Source: a virus. Taken from it: DNA of 43,216 nt. The position numbers were made by a program, and so were the translations under genes. The stretch is from the UHGV virus genome UHGV-0353264. One strand, written 5' to 3'. A model generated the notes under the pieces. It made no database searches, was not told the origin of the DNA, and was given only the letters and a program-made list of their open reading frames with translations. Shown piece after piece: positions 27,337-35,494 of this stretch. The stretch's first letter is position 1. The number at the start of each line of letters is the position of its first letter.

Positions 27337-27712
27337 TGTAACAGATGTGCTTTTTGACCCCGATTTTTGCGACTTCAATTTGTGGGTAACACGCCGAGTG
27401 CAAACGGTGGATGAGGACGGGATCGGCAGCGACAGTGAAGTTAAAAAGCAGTTTGCCGGAGTCGTAACTGTTGATCGCTCTCTGGAAAACCGCCGTATGC
27501 AGGCAGGGCAGGTAATCAGCGGTGCAATTCTGATTGTGACGACTGAGCGACTGACGCAGGGACAGACTGGCCGTGATGCCGATATCGTGACGTATCAGGG
27601 CCGTGATTATCGTGTGACCTTCGTCGACCCGTATACAGCTTATGGGGCCGGATTCGTTCAGGCGCATTGTGAGTTGATGCCGTTTGATGGGGGAACTCCG
27701 GTTGAGCAATAA
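27323..27712 (+). CDS. Virion structural protein (neck/tail completion candidate)
   Basis: 129 aa ORF in the structural operon. Confidence 0.45.
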   Translation: MPTLDVTDVLFDPDFCDFNLWVTRRVQTVDEDGIGSDSEVKKQFAGVVTVDRSLENRRMQAGQVISGAILIVTTERLTQGQTGRDADIVTYQGRDYRVTFVDPYTAYGAGFVQAHCELMPFDGGTPVEQ

Positions 27713-28250
27713 CACCAGTACAGAGCGCGGATGGTTAATACCAACCAGTGGCGATCCGGATTATGACGAAGCGCTCGACAGGCTGTTAAGCCAGTGGATG
27801 CGTAACGTTTCCGGTCTGTCTGCCGGGATGGTTCGCCCGCGCTGGCAGAAAGAGCAGCCGCCACTGCTACCGGCTGAAACGAACTGGTGTGCGTTTGGGG
27901 TTATCGGATGGTCAGGTGATGACAGTCCGGCATTCACCAGACAGACCGATGATGGCTCTCAGCTCTGGCGGCATGAAACGATTGAGTGTATGGCTTCGTT
28001 TTATGGACCGGCGGGGATGGTGTATGCGTCCCGGTTTCGTGACGGTATATCTGTGCCGCAGAACAATGCAGCACTGAATGCGCTGGGGCTGTCTCTTGGC
28101 GATTACACAGGTCTGACTCCCTTCCCTGAACTTATTAATCAGCAATGGGTCCGCCGCTACGATATGACGGTGCGCCTGCGCCGGAAGGTTGTGCGCGAGT
28201 ACGGTATTAAATCGCTGGTGGAAGCACCAGTCATCTTTTTCGGAGATTAA
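27684..28250 (+). CDS. Virion structural protein (tail terminator candidate)
   Basis: 188 aa ORF directly upstream of the sheath-like gene. Confidence 0.45.
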   Translation: MMGELRLSNNTSTERGWLIPTSGDPDYDEALDRLLSQWMRNVSGLSAGMVRPRWQKEQPPLLPAETNWCAFGVIGWSGDDSPAFTRQTDDGSQLWRHETIECMASFYGPAGMVYASRFRDGISVPQNNAALNALGLSLGDYTGLTPFPELINQQWVRRYDMTVRLRRKVVREYGIKSLVEAPVIFFGD

Positions 28251-28253
28251 GCT

Positions 28254-29399
28254 ATGGCACAGGGCTTGCCTGTATCAAACGTTGTTAATGTTGATGTGAT
28301 CATGTCGCCGCGTGCAGCATCAGGGCGAAATTTTGGTGCATTACTCATTCTCGGCCCGTCCACAATCATTCCGGTAAGTGAGCGCATTCGTCGTTATTCT
28401 GCCGCGGAAGATATTGGAAAAGATTTTGGCGTGGAATCACCAGAATATAAAGCTGCGCAGGTGTTTTTCTCACAATCACCGAAACCTCAGGAGGTTTTTG
28501 TTGGTCGTTGGGTGAAAACGAAGGGAGACAGCGAACAGGCCACGCCTGAGACGCTGGAGCAGGCTGTGAATGCCATGCTTGATTATACTTCATGGTATGG
28601 GCTGGGGATTGCAGACGATGCAGATATTCCGGATGCAGACTGGCTGAAAGTGGCTGCGGCGATCGAATCCTCTTCTGTAAGCCGTATTCTGGCGATTACG
28701 ACAAGCGATGAGAAATGCCTGCAGACTGCATCCAGAGATGATTTGGCATCAGAACTGAAAACCGCCGGATATTCACGCAGTTTTATTCAGTATTCATCGG
28801 GTAATAAATACGCTGCGTTATCTGCATTTGGCCGGGCATTCACGGTTAATTTCAATGGCAGTAATACCGCGATTACGCTCAAGTTTAAGCAGGAGCCGGG
28901 TGTCGGGTATGAAACACTGACAGTCAGCCAGGCATCGGCACTTGATGCAAAAAACTGCAATGTGTTCGTGTACTACCAGAATGATACAGCTATCCTCCAG
29001 CAGGGAGTGATGGCTAACGGCGATTTCTTTGATGAACGCCACGGCCTGGACTGGTTACAGAATTATGTGCAGACCAACCTCTATAACCTGCTTTATACCA
29101 GTACCACGAAGGTTCCCCAGACTGAAGCCGGTATTACCCGACTGTTATCAAATGTTGAAAAATCACTGGATCAGGCCGTTCAGAATGGACTGATTGCTCC
29201 GGGCGTATGGAACGGTGGCGACCTTGGCCAGTTGTCATCAGGTGACACGCTGCCCAAAGGTTATTACGTATACGCCCAGCCGCTGGATGAACAGGCACAA
29301 TCAGAACGTGAAGCCCGTAAGGCTCCGGTGATTCAGGCTGCAATAAAACTTGCAGGCGCGGTTCATTACGCTGACGTACAGATTAACGTTGTTCGCTAA
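28254..29399 (+). CDS. Putative tail sheath / major tail protein (DUF3383-like)
   Basis: 381 aa, followed by a tube-sized gene and a frameshift chaperone; baseplate V/W/J/I-like genes downstream indicate a contractile tail. Confidence 0.55.
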
Positions 29400-29409
29400 G
29401 GGGAAGTGA

Positions 29410-29850
29410 ATGTCTACCTATTCTTTTATGGATGTCACTGCGACGCTGACCGGGCCGACCGGTTCGATTGACCTCGGGTACGGTTCGGCAAGTTCTGAAG
29501 AGGGGATTGTGGTTGCGATGGGCGGTCCTAAAAACACCATGACCATCGGTGCTGATGGCGAAGTGATGCACAGTCTCCATGCAGATAAAAGCGGGACGAT
29601 TACCGTTAACCTTCTGAAGACATCACCGACAAATAAAAAATTGTCGCTGGCGTATAACGCACAGAGCCAGTCTTCTGCCACATGGGGGAATAACGTTATC
29701 GTGATCCGCAACAAGGTCAGCGGCGACATCATCACGGCACGCAGTGTTGCGTTCCAGAAACAACCGGATAACGCCAACGCTAAAACCGGTAATACGATGC
29801 CGTGGGTGTTTGACTGCGGCAAGATTGACCAGGTTCTCGGGGAGTTTTAA
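29410..29850 (+). CDS. Putative tail tube protein
   Basis: 146 aa, immediately after the sheath-like gene. Confidence 0.5.
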   Translation: MSTYSFMDVTATLTGPTGSIDLGYGSASSEEGIVVAMGGPKNTMTIGADGEVMHSLHADKSGTITVNLLKTSPTNKKLSLAYNAQSQSSATWGNNVIVIRNKVSGDIITARSVAFQKQPDNANAKTGNTMPWVFDCGKIDQVLGEF

Positions 29851-29853
29851 TAC

Positions 29854-30306
29854 ATGGAATTCGAAATCAAAGGCGTGAAATATCGCGTGGCAAAACTCAG
29901 CGTTTTTGACCAGCTGAAAGTGACCCGCAAACTTCTGCCGGTACTGGCGGGAATGATGTCAGATTTCGGGAGCATTCGCTCCCGTTTGCCTGCTGACGGC
30001 AAAATCGACACCGTGAAATTCGAGCAGTTAAAACCGGTGTTTGAAACCATGCTCCCGCGTATCGCTGAGGAACTGTCTTCCCTGACCGAAGATGACACCG
30101 ATGCGATTATTCATCCCTGTCTTGCGGTGGTGTCGCGGCGTCATATGGATGGATGGGTGCCGGTATTAACCCAGGGCGAACTGATGTTTGATGATATTGA
30201 CTTGCTGGTCATGCTTCATCTGGTGGCGCGGGTGGTCGCCGATTCGCTGGGAAATTTTTTGCCTACACCCCTTACCAGCACGACACAGAGCCTGCAACAG
30301 GGCTGA
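29854..30306 (+). CDS. Tail assembly chaperone (short form)
   Basis: 150 aa directly upstream of the tape measure gene; contains a slippery heptamer near its 3' end. Confidence 0.5.
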   Translation: MEFEIKGVKYRVAKLSVFDQLKVTRKLLPVLAGMMSDFGSIRSRLPADGKIDTVKFEQLKPVFETMLPRIAEELSSLTEDDTDAIIHPCLAVVSRRHMDGWVPVLTQGELMFDDIDLLVMLHLVARVVADSLGNFLPTPLTSTTQSLQQG

Positions 30307-30494
30307 CGTTTAACAGCCTGCCGGACGGGCTGTCCTACCTTCTCAATCCGGTTGACGCCGGGTTAATTCCCTATACAGCACTTAAAGATGGCTCTGTCGA
30401 TTTGTATGACATTGCTCTCTTGAATGACCATCTGGCGGTAAAAGCGGATAACCAGCGGCGCATTGAGAAATGGAGAGAGGATAATGAACGCTGA
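30255..30494 (+). other. Programmed -1 frameshift site and extension ORF of the tail assembly chaperone
   Basis: Slippery heptamer T_TTT_TTG at 30255-30261 in the chaperone frame; the -1 frame is open from there to TGA 30492-30494 (...TFNSLPDGLSYLLNPVDAGLIPYTALKDGSVDLYDIALLNDHLAVKADNQRRIEKWREDNER), overlapping the tape measure start. Confidence 0.55.
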
Positions 30495-32469
30495 AACTAT
30501 TAAAGATTTCCTCGTCTCGCTTGGCTTCAGTGTGGATGATGCAGGAGCGAAAAAGTTCGGTTCTGTCCTCGCCGGTACAACTGCAAATGTCATCAAAATG
30601 GGGCTGGCTGTTGAAGGAGCTGCGCTGTCCGTGGTGGCCTTCACGGCTAAGATCGCCTCCGGCCTGGATAATCTTTACTGGGCGTCACAGCGCACCGGCG
30701 CGACGGTCCAGGGAATTCAGTCTATTGGCTATGCGGTTTCGCAGGTTGGCGGCAGTGTGGACGCTGCGCGATCTTCTCTGGAAAGCCTCTCCCGGTTTAT
30801 TCGTAACAATCCCGGAGCAGAAGGCTTTCTGAATCGCCTGGGCGTACAGACCCGTGATGCCAGCGGTAACATGCGTGACATGGCTGCTATCTTTACGGGC
30901 GTTGGACAGAAACTCAGCAGCATGCCGTATTACCGGGCTAACCAGTATGCGCAGATGCTGGGCATTGACGAAAATACCCTGATGGCTATGCGTCGCGGAG
31001 TGGGGCAGTTCAGCGCTCAGTATTCAGAAATGGTGAAAGCGATCGGATTTAATGCCGATCAGGCTGCCTTATCGTCAAACCGGTTTATAACCTCGCTGAA
31101 ATCGCTCGGTGAAATGGCCGGGATGGCGCGGGACAAAATCGGATCGAATCTTGCGGACGGACTGGCGGGGCAGATTGATAACCTGCGCAAAAAGATAATT
31201 GAAAATTTTCCCAAAATTGAAGTCACCATCACAAAGGTCATAAAGGGGATCTTCTGGCTGGGTGAGATAGTCGGGCGGGTAGCATTTCGGATAGTCGATG
31301 GTGTCGGAGATATCATCGAGTGGTGGGGGAAACTGGATGCCGAAACGAAAACCCTGATAGAGGTTATCGGCGGTCTGGTTGTCGCCATGCGAATACTTAA
31401 CTCTACTTTCTGGATGTCACCTATAGGGCTGATTACCGGTCTGATCGTGGCTCTCGGTCTCTTGTGGGAAGACTACAAAACATGGAAAGAAGGCGGTAAC
31501 AGTCTTATCGACTGGGAAAAATGGCAACCGGCAATAGATAAAGCGAAGGATGCGATCACCTGGCTTCGTGATCACCTTCTGGAACTAAAAGATGGTGTTG
31601 GCGGCTGGCAAAATGCACTGGAAATCCTCGGTACATTCATCGCGGGTGTCTGGGTATCCAAGGTTCTGGGAGCTTTCGGGAAAATATCTGGTTTGCCGGT
31701 ACCGCCATGGTTAAAAGGCTGGATGGCTTATGCTGCTTATTTGTACTCCGATCGCGAAAATATTGGTGCCAGTGCGAAGTCATCCTGGGATTACACGAAA
31801 CAAAATATTGGAGATTCATTGCGCTGGCTTGGCATTGATACCGATTTTGGTCGTAATCCTCATACCGTAAAAGGCGCAAATATTCAGTCAGATATTCCAG
31901 GTGCTGAGCCGGAACAACATGCACAGGCTACGAAGCGAGGAGAACGGAATAACAATCCGGGAAACCTTAATTTTGCTGGTCAGGCGGGGGCTTCTCTTGA
32001 ACGACCGGGCGGGCGATTTGCCAGATTTGAAACTGCTTTTGATGGATTACGGGCTCTTGCTCGTCAGTTAATGCTGTACGCCGGACGGGGAATAAACAGT
32101 GTGGAGAAAATTATCTCTACCTGGGCACCTGCGTCTGATAATAACAACACAACCGCGTATATCAGGGCTGTATCGCAACGACTGGGAGTGGATCCCCGGG
32201 CTGCCCTGAATATGAGCGATCCGCAAACCATGTCAGCATTGATGAGCAGCATTATCCAGCATGAGAATGGAAGAAATATCTATTCTCGAGAGCTGATTAA
32301 TAAGGCTGCCGTGGCGGGAATTAGTGGCAAAGTGACAGAGGTTAACCAGCAAAATACCTACCACATTTACGGTGGCGGAGATCCGCACGCTGTCGGTAAT
32401 GAGGTTGCACGTCGGCAACAGTCTGCAAATGCTCAGGTCATGCGAAGTAATCAGGTGAGGGTGGGTTAG
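30484..32469 (+). CDS. Tail tape measure protein
   Basis: ATG at 30484 with RBS ggagagagg (ORF track start 30463 is TTG); helical N-terminal region, hydrophobic segments (LIEVIGGLVVAMRIL..., LITGLIVALGLLW), C-terminal globular domain with NNPGNL motif. Confidence 0.7.
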   Translation: MNAETIKDFLVSLGFSVDDAGAKKFGSVLAGTTANVIKMGLAVEGAALSVVAFTAKIASGLDNLYWASQRTGATVQGIQSIGYAVSQVGGSVDAARSSLESLSRFIRNNPGAEGFLNRLGVQTRDASGNMRDMAAIFTGVGQKLSSMPYYRANQYAQMLGIDENTLMAMRRGVGQFSAQYSEMVKAIGFNADQAALSSNRFITSLKSLGEMAGMARDKIGSNLADGLAGQIDNLRKKIIENFPKIEVTITKVIKGIFWLGEIVGRVAFRIVDGVGDIIEWWGKLDAETKTLIEVIGGLVVAMRILNSTFWMSPIGLITGLIVALGLLWEDYKTWKEGGNSLIDWEKWQPAIDKAKDAITWLRDHLLELKDGVGGWQNALEILGTFIAGVWVSKVLGAFGKISGLPVPPWLKGWMAYAAYLYSDRENIGASAKSSWDYTKQNIGDSLRWLGIDTDFGRNPHTVKGANIQSDIPGAEPEQHAQATKRGERNNNPGNLNFAGQAGASLERPGGRFARFETAFDGLRALARQLMLYAGRGINSVEKIISTWAPASDNNNTTAYIRAVSQRLGVDPRAALNMSDPQTMSALMSSIIQHENGRNIYSRELINKAAVAGISGKVTEVNQQNTYHIYGGGDPHAVGNEVARRQQSANAQVMRSNQVRVG

Positions 32470-33056
32470 TGGATATTCTCTCTACACTTTTTCATCAGCA
32501 GAGCAGAAAAATAGGAATGATTGTTCCCAGTGTTGTTATTTCAGAGAAGCATACAGATATGCTTGAAATAACAGAGCATCCGGTAGAGGTCGGGGCCGCT
32601 GTCGCTGATCATGCCTATAAAAAACCGTCAGAAGTGGTGATGGAGGTTGGTTTCGCCGGTGGCGGCGCATTGCTGGATTTTGCCAGTAACCTGACGGCTA
32701 CCAGCCTGCTCGGCCTGAGTCCTCAGCAGACGTATCAGGAGCTACTGGGTCTGCAGGAAAGCCGTATCCCCTTCGATGTGGTAACCGGTAAACGGCTGTA
32801 CAGCAACATGTTGATCCGGGCGCTGGAAGTGACGACGGACAAGACAACCGAAAACGTCCTGTCCGCCGTCCTCACCCTGAGGGAGGTCATTATCTCCCGG
32901 ACACAGCAGATTACCGTCGCGGATAAAACCAACATGAAGGAAGGGGCCAGCACGTCGGCGGTACAGAACAGCGGCAACAAAACCACAAAGCCTCCAGATA
33001 CTTCACTGCTGAAAAGCATCACGGGTAACGTGGCGTCATTACTGGGGGGCGGCTAA
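32469..33056 (+). CDS. Tail/baseplate protein, unknown function
   Basis: 195 aa; 1-nt start-stop overlap with the tape measure gene. Confidence 0.45.
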   Translation: MDILSTLFHQQSRKIGMIVPSVVISEKHTDMLEITEHPVEVGAAVADHAYKKPSEVVMEVGFAGGGALLDFASNLTATSLLGLSPQQTYQELLGLQESRIPFDVVTGKRLYSNMLIRALEVTTDKTTENVLSAVLTLREVIISRTQQITVADKTNMKEGASTSAVQNSGNKTTKPPDTSLLKSITGNVASLLGGG

Positions 33057-33358
33057 TGACAATTCAGGAAATTCCGCTGACAGCGGACAACCAGCAGTTC
33101 AGCATCGTCCTGGGTGGTGTCACCTGGCGGATTAGCATCATATGGCGCGATCTGTACTGGATTATGGACCTGCAGAACGACAGAGGGGAGCCGGTAATCT
33201 CCGGTATTCCTCTCGTCACTGGTGCTGACCTGCTGGCGCAGTACGCCTGTATGGGGCTTGGTTTTAAGCTGGTGGTGGTCTGTGATGACAACACACAGGA
33301 TTACCCCACAAAAACTGACCTGGGCGGTCGCAGCCATTTACTGGTATCAACGGAGTAA
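33056..33358 (+). CDS. Small tail/baseplate protein
   Basis: 100 aa; overlapping start-stop with the upstream gene. Confidence 0.4.
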   Translation: MTIQEIPLTADNQQFSIVLGGVTWRISIIWRDLYWIMDLQNDRGEPVISGIPLVTGADLLAQYACMGLGFKLVVVCDDNTQDYPTKTDLGGRSHLLVSTE

Positions 33359-33360
33359 GC

Positions 33361-34428
33361 ATGTCACAGAACTGGATGAGACATTTCGAGCTGCAGCTTG
33401 TGGACTGGAACGGTCAGGGAATTGAGCTAAGTGATTTCAAAGTCACCTTTACGATCGACTGGTTCAACATCAGCAGCGCGTCCCGGGTAGGGACTATCAA
33501 AATTTATAACCTCTCGGCAGATACTGTGAACCGAATTACCGGGCAGGAGTTTTCGAAAGTGCGTCTGATTGCGGGTTACGACGGTATCGCGCCGGAGGTG
33601 TCGGCAAGCGACATCGGGACAGTGCGGGAAGTTGACGCGGCGGACGTGGGCCAGAGTGATGGTCGCAACTACGGACTGATTTTCAGCGGTGAAATTCGCT
33701 ACTCGGTCACAGGAAAAGACAGTCCGGTTGATTCCTACGTCCTGATTCAGGCAGCAGATACTGATCTGGCTTTTGCCACCAGTATAACCTCACAGACGCT
33801 GGCTGCCGGTTACACGGTCGCTGATGTGAACCGTGCGCTGATGAAAGACTTCGAAGCCAAAGGTGCGACCGAAGGCCTGACGCCTGAAATGCCTGCTACT
33901 GTATTCCCCCGGGGGCGGGTGCTCTTTGGCATGACGCGGCATCTAATGGATAACGTAGCCGGGCAATGTGGCGCAACATGGCAATTCGTGGATGGTCAGC
34001 GCCAGATGGTGGTGAATAATGAATATGTTCACGAAGCGATTGTGCTCAACAGCGCTACCGGGCTTATTGGCATGCCGCAGCAGACCATCGGCAACGGCGT
34101 AAACGTCCGCGCGCTTATTAATCCGAACATCCGGGTTAATGGGCTCATTCAACTGGATCAGGCTTCCGTATATCGCACCGAGTTGTCGAACAACGATATC
34201 GCTATGGCTGGTGGGCAGATCACCGACCAGAACACGGACGGAAATATTACGCTAAGCGGCACCACATCGCAGCCTGCCAGCATCGCAACGGATGGCGTTT
34301 ATATTGTGCGCGGGATTATGTACACTGGCGACACAAGGGGCCAGGCGTGGTACATGGATATGATGTGCGAAGCGCGCGGTGCGGCGGATCTTCGTTCGGC
34401 GTCGTCTTTACAGCGTGAGGTAGGATAG
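33361..34428 (+). CDS. Putative baseplate hub protein
   Basis: 355 aa; position corresponds to the hub gene in Mu-like tail modules. Confidence 0.45.
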   Translation: MSQNWMRHFELQLVDWNGQGIELSDFKVTFTIDWFNISSASRVGTIKIYNLSADTVNRITGQEFSKVRLIAGYDGIAPEVSASDIGTVREVDAADVGQSDGRNYGLIFSGEIRYSVTGKDSPVDSYVLIQAADTDLAFATSITSQTLAAGYTVADVNRALMKDFEAKGATEGLTPEMPATVFPRGRVLFGMTRHLMDNVAGQCGATWQFVDGQRQMVVNNEYVHEAIVLNSATGLIGMPQQTIGNGVNVRALINPNIRVNGLIQLDQASVYRTELSNNDIAMAGGQITDQNTDGNITLSGTTSQPASIATDGVYIVRGIMYTGDTRGQAWYMDMMCEARGAADLRSASSLQREVG

Positions 34429-34781
34429 TGAAAAAGTGGATTGTTATCGGACTCTGTTTCCTTCCGGGGTTAGCATTTGCTGCGAATCCTGGCGGTGTCA
34501 CGCTTCAGTGTGGTGGCTACAAATTAGAGTTGATTCCTGATTCATTGTTCAGGATTAATGGTGAGACAGTTACCTCCCAGAAAATCAAAACGCTCGGCAA
34601 CGGTAATGGAATGAAGGCGGATATGGGGCTTATGCCAGCCAAAGACGGTAACAATTACGGTTTCGAGTTCATTCGCCGTCCGGGTACCGAAACGCGTTTC
34701 TTGAATGTCCAACTACTGCAGAACAGCATGGATGCGCCGAGAATCATAGGTTCGTTTCCTTGTAAGAAGGTCGACGATTAA
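34428..34781 (+). CDS. Secreted (periplasmic) protein of unknown function (moron)
   Basis: 117 aa; GTG start with RBS gagg; Sec signal peptide MKKWIVIGLCFLPGLAFA; two Cys in the mature part. Confidence 0.5.
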   Translation: MKKWIVIGLCFLPGLAFAANPGGVTLQCGGYKLELIPDSLFRINGETVTSQKIKTLGNGNGMKADMGLMPAKDGNNYGFEFIRRPGTETRFLNVQLLQNSMDAPRIIGSFPCKKVDD

Positions 34782-34787
34782 TACAAT

Positions 34788-35318
34788 ATGTGCAATCAAA
34801 GGAATGAGGCTGTTGGCCTTGAAGTAGATACGATTTTGTCGTACTCGAGAGACAGGTATGAAGAAGTTAAGACAACATACAGGCGGTTAGAGGACAAAGC
34901 TAATTTTCTTCTTGCTGTGCTTGGTGTTGAGATTTCTGCATTATTAGCCGTTTTTGGGTCCTTTGAGCTGGGACAACAGTTAAAGACTAGTCTATCCGCA
35001 AGATTGTCTCTATTGTGTCTATGTTCATGTTTTGTATGTTTGGTTTTTTGTTTTTATTATTTATGGAAATGTTGGGAACTTAGAAATATTCCCAAAATGC
35101 CTGTGCATCGAACACCTGAACAACATGAATTTCTTCTGAGGGGTAGTAGAGATGACACAGTCAGATTTCATTTGATAATGTATGGTAGGGCTATTGATAG
35201 AATCGAGAAAATCCATAAAGAAAAATCAGCGTTTGTGAATGAGTTGTTTCGATGGATGGTTATGTCATTTGTATTTTTTATTATTTCCGTAACGTGCATG
35301 TTAATAAGTAAGGTTTGA
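34788..35318 (+). CDS. Two-transmembrane-helix membrane protein of unknown function (moron)
   Basis: 176 aa; strongly AT-rich; hydrophobic hairpin (LLAVLGVEISALLAVFGSF, LSLLCLCSCFVCLVFCFYYLW) plus a further C-terminal hydrophobic segment. Confidence 0.5.
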   Translation: MCNQRNEAVGLEVDTILSYSRDRYEEVKTTYRRLEDKANFLLAVLGVEISALLAVFGSFELGQQLKTSLSARLSLLCLCSCFVCLVFCFYYLWKCWELRNIPKMPVHRTPEQHEFLLRGSRDDTVRFHLIMYGRAIDRIEKIHKEKSAFVNELFRWMVMSFVFFIISVTCMLISKV

Positions 35319-35320
35319 AT

Positions 35321-35494
35321 ATGTCCTGTCCAGAAGACCAAAATGAACCACAACCTAAACCAAGTGAGCCTGAGGTCTCTTTCCTAGATAACTATGAGCA
35401 AGAGATTATGGCTAGAGTACCTTTCGGGGATATCGAAATTATGACGGAAAGCTATCACGACAAGCCTTCAACTTTTCCCAAGAAAGATAGTTAG
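35321..35494 (+). CDS. Small acidic protein (57 aa)
   Basis: ATG at 35321, 2 nt after the upstream stop; translation MSCPEDQNEPQPKPSEPEVSFLDNYEQEIMARVPFGDIEIMTESYHDKPSTFPKKDS. Not in the ORF track. Confidence 0.3.
   Translation: MSCPEDQNEPQPKPSEPEVSFLDNYEQEIMARVPFGDIEIMTESYHDKPSTFPKKDS

Follow-up and report, generated by a model that had tools for sequence, protein, structure and literature searches.

The synthesis of two tail assembly chaperones, G and GT, by a programmed -1 ribosomal frameshift is a well-known phage mechanism, and its workings and the roles of its products have been described in lambda (Levin 1993; Xu, Hendrix and Duda 2004, 2013, 2014; reviewed in PMC5009743). Here, we describe a tail assembly chaperone gene that very probably uses this strategy in the UHGV virus genome UHGV-0353264, a 43,216-nucleotide (nt) stretch of DNA that is referred to below, at its full length, as the window and that constitutes a complete temperate Escherichia coli myovirus prophage. 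As in lambda, the gene is flanked by the major tail (tube) and tape measure genes, its extension lacks a separate start codon and stops where the tape measure gene begins, and there is no obligatory RNA structure. Unlike in lambda, the proteins belong to the Phage_TAC_15 and DUF6889 families, with no detectable sequence similarity to G/GT, the tail is contractile instead of that of a siphovirus, and the most conserved heptamer is T_TTT_TTG. The lambda slip heptamer is reportedly G_GGA_AAG, which a nested G_GGA_AAT in the window resembles.

The slip heptamer is shared with P2, another E. coli contractile-tail phage, in which the E/E+E' shift at the same tube-tape measure location uses TTTTTTG without a downstream hairpin (Christie et al. 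2002, as cited in PMC3091744). P2 E and E+E' are 91 and 142 amino acids (aa) long, compared with 150 and 213 aa here, and belong to another protein family. Moreover, the heptamer in the window is embedded in a 13-nt nested cassette, and the P2 site, unlike the present one, has been proven experimentally. The signals of E. coli dnaX and of insertion sequence (IS) elements share with this locus a canonical heptamer and possibly a Shine-Dalgarno (SD)-like element, here 12 nt from G_GGA_AAT or, in lineages that have only the T run, from the T run itself. They differ in that the locus has no conserved downstream hairpin or pseudoknot and in that its SD-like element is weak and may reflect conserved R-V-V codons.

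A true homologue is found in Klebsiella phage Mulock (GenBank MN098327, CPT_Mulock_014/015), with 69% nt identity, an identical GGGAAATTTTTTG cassette, an extension that likewise runs 11 nt into the tape measure gene, and a joined coding sequence (CDS) named "tape measure chaperone frameshift product." The frameshift in Mulock is an annotation only, and the genome announcement of this phage makes no mention of it. Set against what is already known, the additions made by the present locus are modest, namely the link between DUF6889 and the T part and the nested two-site cassette.

Anatomy of the chaperone locus

The 0-frame product (G) of the chaperone gene (29854..30306, plus strand) is 150 aa long, with its TGA stop codon at 30304-30306, and matches Pfam Phage_TAC_15 (PF21822; E 4.4e-30, 105.2 bits versus a gathering cut-off of 22, residues 6-136) and phrog_1688, "tail assembly chaperone" (E 4.8e-61). 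The gene sits between the tube and tape measure genes, as the definition of the G/GT type requires (order sheath, tube, chaperone, tape measure). Across 30241-30264 the 0 frame reads GAT TCG CTG GGA AAT TTT TTG CCT, and the slippery heptamer T_TTT_TTG (30255..30261, plus strand) is a canonical X_XXY_YYZ sequence in the 0-frame register, with TTT in the P site and TTG in the A site. The original prediction had given the position and register of this heptamer exactly. It was silent on two further heptamers nested just 5' of it, G_GGA_AAT (30249-30255) and A_AAT_TTT (30252-30258), which combine with T_TTT_TTG into a 13-nt cassette of three overlapping in-register heptamers, G_GGA_AAT_TTT_TTG (30249..30261, plus strand). 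The distance to the 0-frame stop, put at 45 nt in the prediction, was close to the actual values of 42 nt from the heptamer end and 49 nt from its start.

In the -1 frame, no stop codon occurs between 30201 and 30491. The extension that follows the shift, or T part (30261..30494, plus strand), comprises 77 sense codons (30261-30491) and a TGA stop (30492-30494); the open frame had thus been correctly recognized, its length being one codon short of the "about 78" predicted. Also as predicted, it overlaps the tape measure start, by 11 nt counted to the end of the stop codon from the ATG at 30484. A conceptual fusion, built as the 0 frame through TTG and the -1 frame thereafter, gives a predicted GT protein of 213 aa. 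The extension matches Pfam DUF6889 (PF21829) at fusion residues 173-211 (E 8.9e-20, 70.6 bits versus a cut-off of 23.9) and phrog_4364, a 54-aa family of unknown function (E 1.8e-23). No NCBIfam model was found for the fusion.

Conservation of the slip site and the switch of coding frame

The locus was compared with 12 phage and prophage relatives of 65 to 99% nt identity, from hosts including Klebsiella, Salmonella, Yersinia, Hafnia, and Citrobacter. The sequence CTGGGAAATTTTTTG was invariant in all 12 while its flanks varied, and in every relative except E. coli IAI1 the heptamer was followed by a -1 open reading frame (ORF) of 77 to 78 codons. The 11-nt overlap with the tape measure start was present in 10 of the 11 relatives having an intact T frame. 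In IAI1 (L002, NC_011741), one G is missing from the GGG run at 30327-30329 and the -1 frame closes 34 codons past the heptamer; judging from this sequence, the strain could not make a full GT protein. A DUF6889 CDS is still called in its RefSeq record, now in another frame.

Wider scans gave the same picture. Among near-identical loci in viral contigs (93 to 99%), the T6 run was present in 78/78 and the extension was intact in 74. A scan of one genome per species across the Enterobacterales contributed 65 more loci, with chaperone identities of 45 to 84%, and all loci pooled gave 73 distinct sequences around the slip site. The T6 run was kept in the same register in 72 of these 73, down to a chaperone identity of 45%, with G (65 sequences), T (5), A (1), or C (1) as the seventh heptamer base; five distinct loci carry T7. 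In a near-identical prophage copy (Logan SRR23924998; L162:1201-1842, protein P0001), T7 replaces T6 (GGGAAATTTTTTTG) and the chaperone and DUF6889 are encoded in a single 213-aa ORF with the junction ..GNFFAY... Its T7 reflects either a sequencing error in the homopolymer or a natural mutation that leaves GT as the only product.

The full 13-mer GGGAAATTTTTTG, with all three heptamers, was by far the commonest form (57 distinct sequences), and all three were also present in GGGAAATTTTTTT (4 sequences) and GGGAAATTTTTTA (1 sequence). A_AAT_TTT was retained with the T run in CGGAAATTTTTTG (2 sequences) and TGGAAATTTTTTC (1 sequence). Eight loci, among them L120, L130, L143, L147, L148, L149, and L153, had the T run only, in the forms GGGCGGTTTTTTG, GGGCAGTTTTTTG, and GGGTGATTTTTTG (2 sequences each) and GGGAAGTTTTTTG and CGGTAATTTTTTT (1 each). 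The sole exception to T6 was a Salmonella enterica s1 locus (L110; 1893-1905) whose T run is broken (TATTTTG) and which carries G_GGA_AAT only (GGGAAATATTTTG, 1 sequence), with the DUF6889 frame intact. Likewise, in the metagenomic loci L159 (1237-1249) and L160 (GGGAAATATCTTG) the T run is broken (TATCTTG) and both G_GGA_AAT and the DUF6889 frame are intact. No locus lacked both heptamers. The sequences of L110 and L159/L160 suggest that the upstream nested heptamer is able to carry the shift. Natural lineages keep one half of the cassette or the other, and the 73 variants of a single frameshift site provide material on whether nested heptamers and the spacing of SD-like elements tune efficiency.

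Two degraded copies were also encountered. In Izhakiella australiensis (L134:1857-2631), the T domain ends after ..DGSVDLAD and is followed by unrelated sequence, the tape measure start being missing. In Apirhabdus apintestini (L100:1501-1644), the chaperone ORF stops at codon 47.

The frame under selection was followed through the site in an alignment of 44 sequences, no pair of which was 90% or more identical. Since position 2 of a 0-frame codon is the third position of the -1 frame, a change of coding frame moves the most variable column from position 3 to position 2. Upstream of the motif (30225-30254), mean column entropies at 0-frame codon positions 1, 2, and 3 were 0.32, 0.48, and 1.21; in the overlap between the heptamer and the 0-frame stop (30262-30303) they were 0.83, 1.37, and 0.99, and past the 0-frame stop (30307-30356) they were 0.58, 1.47, and 0.66. 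Variation therefore peaks at third positions of the 0 frame before the heptamer and, once the heptamer is reached, at those of the -1 frame. Peptide conservation switches in the same way, with mean pairwise identities of 0.79 (0 frame) and 0.45 (-1 frame) over the nine upstream codons and of 0.34 and 0.70, respectively, just past the heptamer, where ARTPRQ and ARTPYQ are common -1 peptides. Conservation of the -1 frame begins inside the chaperone ORF, about 70 nt upstream of the start codon assigned in RefSeq.

That the -1 frame is the better conserved one, starting at the slip site, is as expected of a frameshift fusion and does not fit a small gene with its own initiation. In the AlphaFold2 (AF2) model of the chaperone, which is of moderate quality (predicted local distance difference test [pLDDT] 67.9, predicted template modeling score [pTM] 0.57), the 0-frame tail past the slip site (residues 136-150) is also disordered (pLDDT 33). 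Across the Enterobacterales, the substitution pattern identifies the extension as real coding sequence under purifying selection from the shift site. The original prediction had assigned the site to the conserved G/GT-type chaperone frameshifts, and this assignment is supported by the gene order, by the domains found in both frames, by the conservation of the site, and by the switch of the frame under selection. The observation itself is confirmed, and at the sequence level the locus shows all hallmarks of a G/GT-type chaperone frameshift.

Proposed expression of the fusion and competing explanations

Signals that might stimulate slippage were sought on both sides of the cassette. The conserved hairpin or pseudoknot of dnaX/IS3-type signals, 5 to 9 nt past the heptamer, was not found. 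The predicted RNA fold of 30255-30360 was no better than those of shuffled sequences (z = -0.01), the z-scores of individual folds of 44 relatives were scattered around 0, and the RNAalifold consensus of 44 sequences had an energy of -0.16 kcal/mol, two invariant pairs, and no covariation. CUCCCCG/CGGGGA pairings seen in some sequences were inconsistent in register and were set aside as attributable to the conserved RTPR and DGE codons.

On the upstream side, the SD-like sequence GGGUGGU (30230..30236, plus strand) is a candidate stimulator. Its GGGUGG part (30230-30235; -6.6 kcal/mol) is among the three strongest anti-SD pairing sites in 29854-30500 (mean -0.98, standard deviation 2.5), the strongest being the tape measure ribosome-binding site, GGAGAGAGGA (30472-30481), which lies with its ATG (30484) within the end of the T frame. 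The end of GGGUGGU is 12 nt away from G_GGA_AAT and 18 nt away from T_TTT_TTG, and GGGUGG at 12 nt from G_GGA_AAT is also the form of the element in lineages with the 13-mer. Of 73 relatives, 55 had an anti-SD element within 26 nt that reached -6 kcal/mol or better, a count confounded by conserved codons and phylogeny. Lineages with the T run only mostly carry GGAGGA (-9.3 kcal/mol) 12 nt before that run, and they mostly form one clade. The element may be a dnaX-like stimulator or merely consist of conserved codons within one clade; we keep the former as a hypothesis, given that the bases in question also specify conserved residues and that most T-only lineages come from a single clade.

We consider it highly probable that the site directs a programmed -1 ribosomal frameshift of the prophage tail assembly chaperone gene. 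Most ribosomes would translate 29854..30306 and release the 150-aa G chaperone. A minority would move back by one base within GGGAAATTTTTTG, the likeliest place being T_TTT_TTG with tRNA-Phe and tRNA-Leu, and continue in the -1 frame to 30494, giving the 213-aa GT protein with DUF6889 in its 77 C-terminal residues. A slip on T_TTT_TTG would create the junction ..GNFLAY.. (SLGNFLAYTPYQ), while ..GNFFAY.. (SLGNFFAYTPYQ) would result from slippage at either of the other heptamers, G_GGA_AAT and A_AAT_TTT, or from a U7 transcript. Apparently, the slip needs no downstream RNA structure and may be helped by the upstream SD-like element. By analogy with lambda G/GT and P2 E/E+E', we infer that the fusion is produced at some set ratio of GT to G and that its parts have distinct binding roles: the N-terminal part common to both would coat the tape measure protein, and recruitment of the tube protein would fall to the T (DUF6889) part, with tube and sheath polymerizing to a set length as a result. 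As in lambda, both G and GT would be expected to be needed for tail assembly and neither to end up in the virion. DUF6889 would then gain a role, as the T part of a G/GT-type chaperone, in place of its status as a domain of unknown function.

Public annotation treats the extension differently. RefSeq/PGAP gives it as a 54-aa "DUF6889 family protein" that starts at a CTG equivalent to window position 30330, and a database search with the T part returned only short ORFs of 43 to 78 aa named "DUF6889 family protein" or "NTP pyrophosphohydrolase" (P0122-P0148). The basis of the latter name is not visible, and our literature searches found no paper mentioning DUF6889. An alignment of the fusion with these short ORFs was visibly misaligned and was not used for structure prediction. 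Such records would be explained if DUF6889 were an independent small gene with its own start past the chaperone stop, the heptamer being incidental, which we hold to be highly improbable. In the window, the extension frame contains no ATG or GTG, and its TTG codons occur only inside the domain; the position of the CTG start is occupied by GAA or GAG in most relatives; the annotated starts and lengths differ between relatives, the spread of 43 to 78 aa reflecting arbitrary start choices; and both the -1 periodicity and the conserved peptide begin at the heptamer, about 70 nt ahead of that CTG and inside the chaperone ORF. Public annotation mislabels the frameshift extension as a separate gene. 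We inspected the annotation of 14 homologous loci, from 12 phage records and two E. coli RefSeq genomes, and a joined product is given in just one, that of Klebsiella phage Mulock; the value of the present analysis is mainly practical, in correcting the gene model of an extension given as a stand-alone gene in RefSeq and most phage records.

The remaining alternatives concern the route to the fusion or deny it. Transcriptional slippage, by which RNA polymerase would insert one additional U at the T6 run, so that the fusion would be encoded in a single frame of the edited mRNA, agrees with the conserved element being a homopolymer, with the five T7 loci, and with the in-frame G-T fusion encoded by the T7 DNA variant P0001/L162. 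Bacterial RNA polymerase, however, slips efficiently only on runs of about 8 to 9 or more, and T6 is short. The route would also be closed to the lineages that have lost the T run and keep G_GGA_AAT and the T domain, and the strictly maintained register between the run and the 0 frame is demanded by a ribosomal heptamer and not by polymerase slippage; we therefore judge this explanation very unlikely. A +1 shift or stop-codon readthrough was rejected because the +1 frame closes early (6 codons past the stop in most relatives and shortly after in the window) and because it is the -1 frame that encodes the conserved domain. That there is no recoding, the -1 ORF being a chance open frame or a gene remnant, could be argued from the mechanical pattern. 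We defined this pattern as a heptamer in frame within the final 40 codons of an ORF, together with a -1 extension reaching 40 codons or more beyond its stop, and it fits 5 of the 75 ORFs of at least 100 aa in the window. Contradicted as it is by the Pfam domain match (E 9e-20) and by purifying selection across the Enterobacterales, this reading can be given practically no weight.

A variant of the favored frameshift would place the productive slip mainly at the lambda-like G_GGA_AAT or at A_AAT_TTT. The rare Gly codon GGA and the G preceding it are kept in most relatives, and L110 and L159/L160 have lost the T run while G_GGA_AAT and the T domain remain intact. The SD-like GGGUGG, moreover, ends 12 nt before G_GGA_AAT, within the 6- to 17-nt upstream range in which stimulatory SD-like sequences were searched for in an E. 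coli heptamer survey (PMC4066793). Yet the T run is more conserved than G_GGA_AAT (72/73), and eight loci keep the T run only. Re-pairing of tRNA-Asn from AAU to AAA is poor in E. coli, which also counts against an upstream slip. In P2, TTTTTTG alone suffices (PMC3091744). On balance, a shift mainly at the upstream heptamers seems unlikely, if well short of negligible. A bolder version would see the 13-nt cassette as two independently sufficient slip sites, one lambda-type (G_GGA_AAN) and one P2-type (T_TTT_TTG), each served by an SD-like element at about 12 nt. We put this forward tentatively, as possible and still doubtful. If correct, the lineage would make GT with two junctions, ..GNFFAY.. 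and ..GNFLAY.., and either half could be dropped without loss of GT, as in the T-only Erwinia-type lineages and in the G_GGA_AAT-only L110 and L159.

Several points weigh against a programmed ribosomal frameshift at T_TTT_TTG. The pattern alone is not beyond chance, the five ORFs of the mechanical screen fitting it mostly because a real gene follows in that frame, and its significance consequently rests on the comparative data. The exact slip site is ambiguous among the three nested heptamers, and G_GGA_AAT may contribute. The U_UUG tetramer alone is a weak shifter in E. coli reporter work, and a value for U_UUU_UUG was not found in the searchable text of the survey concerned (PMC4066793). With no conserved stimulatory structure, the efficiency of frameshifting is not predictable. 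Finally, a profile search of the chaperone against Protein Data Bank (PDB) sequences gave a single, spurious match (E 0.03), and Foldseek of the AF2 model against the PDB gave nothing below E = 2; in the absence of a sequence or fold match to a solved structure, the proposed functional roles rest on synteny and analogy.

Gene context in the prophage

The prophage is about 98% identical to Escherichia phages vB_EcoM-606R2, 689R2, 611R5, and 683R1. Its family was found in 316 of 5,426 complete E. coli genomes and is widespread in the Enterobacterales. The first genes encode, in order, an integrase (1164-2567), an SNF2-like helicase, a family A DNA polymerase, and a VapE-like primase-helicase, and the next block encodes the portal, a Mu F-like protein, and the major capsid protein. 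The neck terminator gene (27684-28250) is followed by the tail sheath gene (28254..29399, plus strand), which matches Pfam DUF3383 (E 9e-101) and phrog_205, "tail sheath" (E 6e-135) and whose presence identifies the tail as contractile. Directly 5' of the chaperone gene lies the tail tube gene (29410..29850, plus strand; Pfam KPP10_Orf10/DUF3277, E 8.8e-61).

The tape measure gene (30484..32469, plus strand) matches phrog_2276, "tail length tape measure protein" (E 7e-264). The C-terminal third of its product (residues ~407-649) matches endolysin and transglycosylase PHROGs, homologues being annotated as SLT or lytic transglycosylase, and from these matches the tape measure protein appears to carry a built-in cell-wall hydrolase domain. 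Downstream follow genes for a Dit-like protein, plug, hub, spike, baseplate J, tail fiber, and fiber assembly protein. At the end of the Dit-like gene, the mechanical screen made a chance hit on G_GGG_GGC (33044-33056), with the plug gene (33056-33358) in the -1 frame; because the plug gene starts at an ATG of its own, the junction between the two genes seems an ordinary one.

The genes for the baseplate hub and the spike are separated by two or three small ORFs (34428-34781 and 34788-35318, also 35315-35494). The product of one carries a signal peptide (phrog_3443), and that of another is a membrane protein (phrog_18554) with a weak likeness to the Pycsar effector PycTM that falls below trust level (E 2.6e-4). 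These ORFs look like inserted cargo ("moron") genes within the tail module. Just past the tail fiber assembly gene, on the opposite strand (40276-41247, minus strand), an acyltransferase of the Acyl_transf_3 family is encoded, a candidate lysogenic-conversion (O-antigen acetylation) gene.

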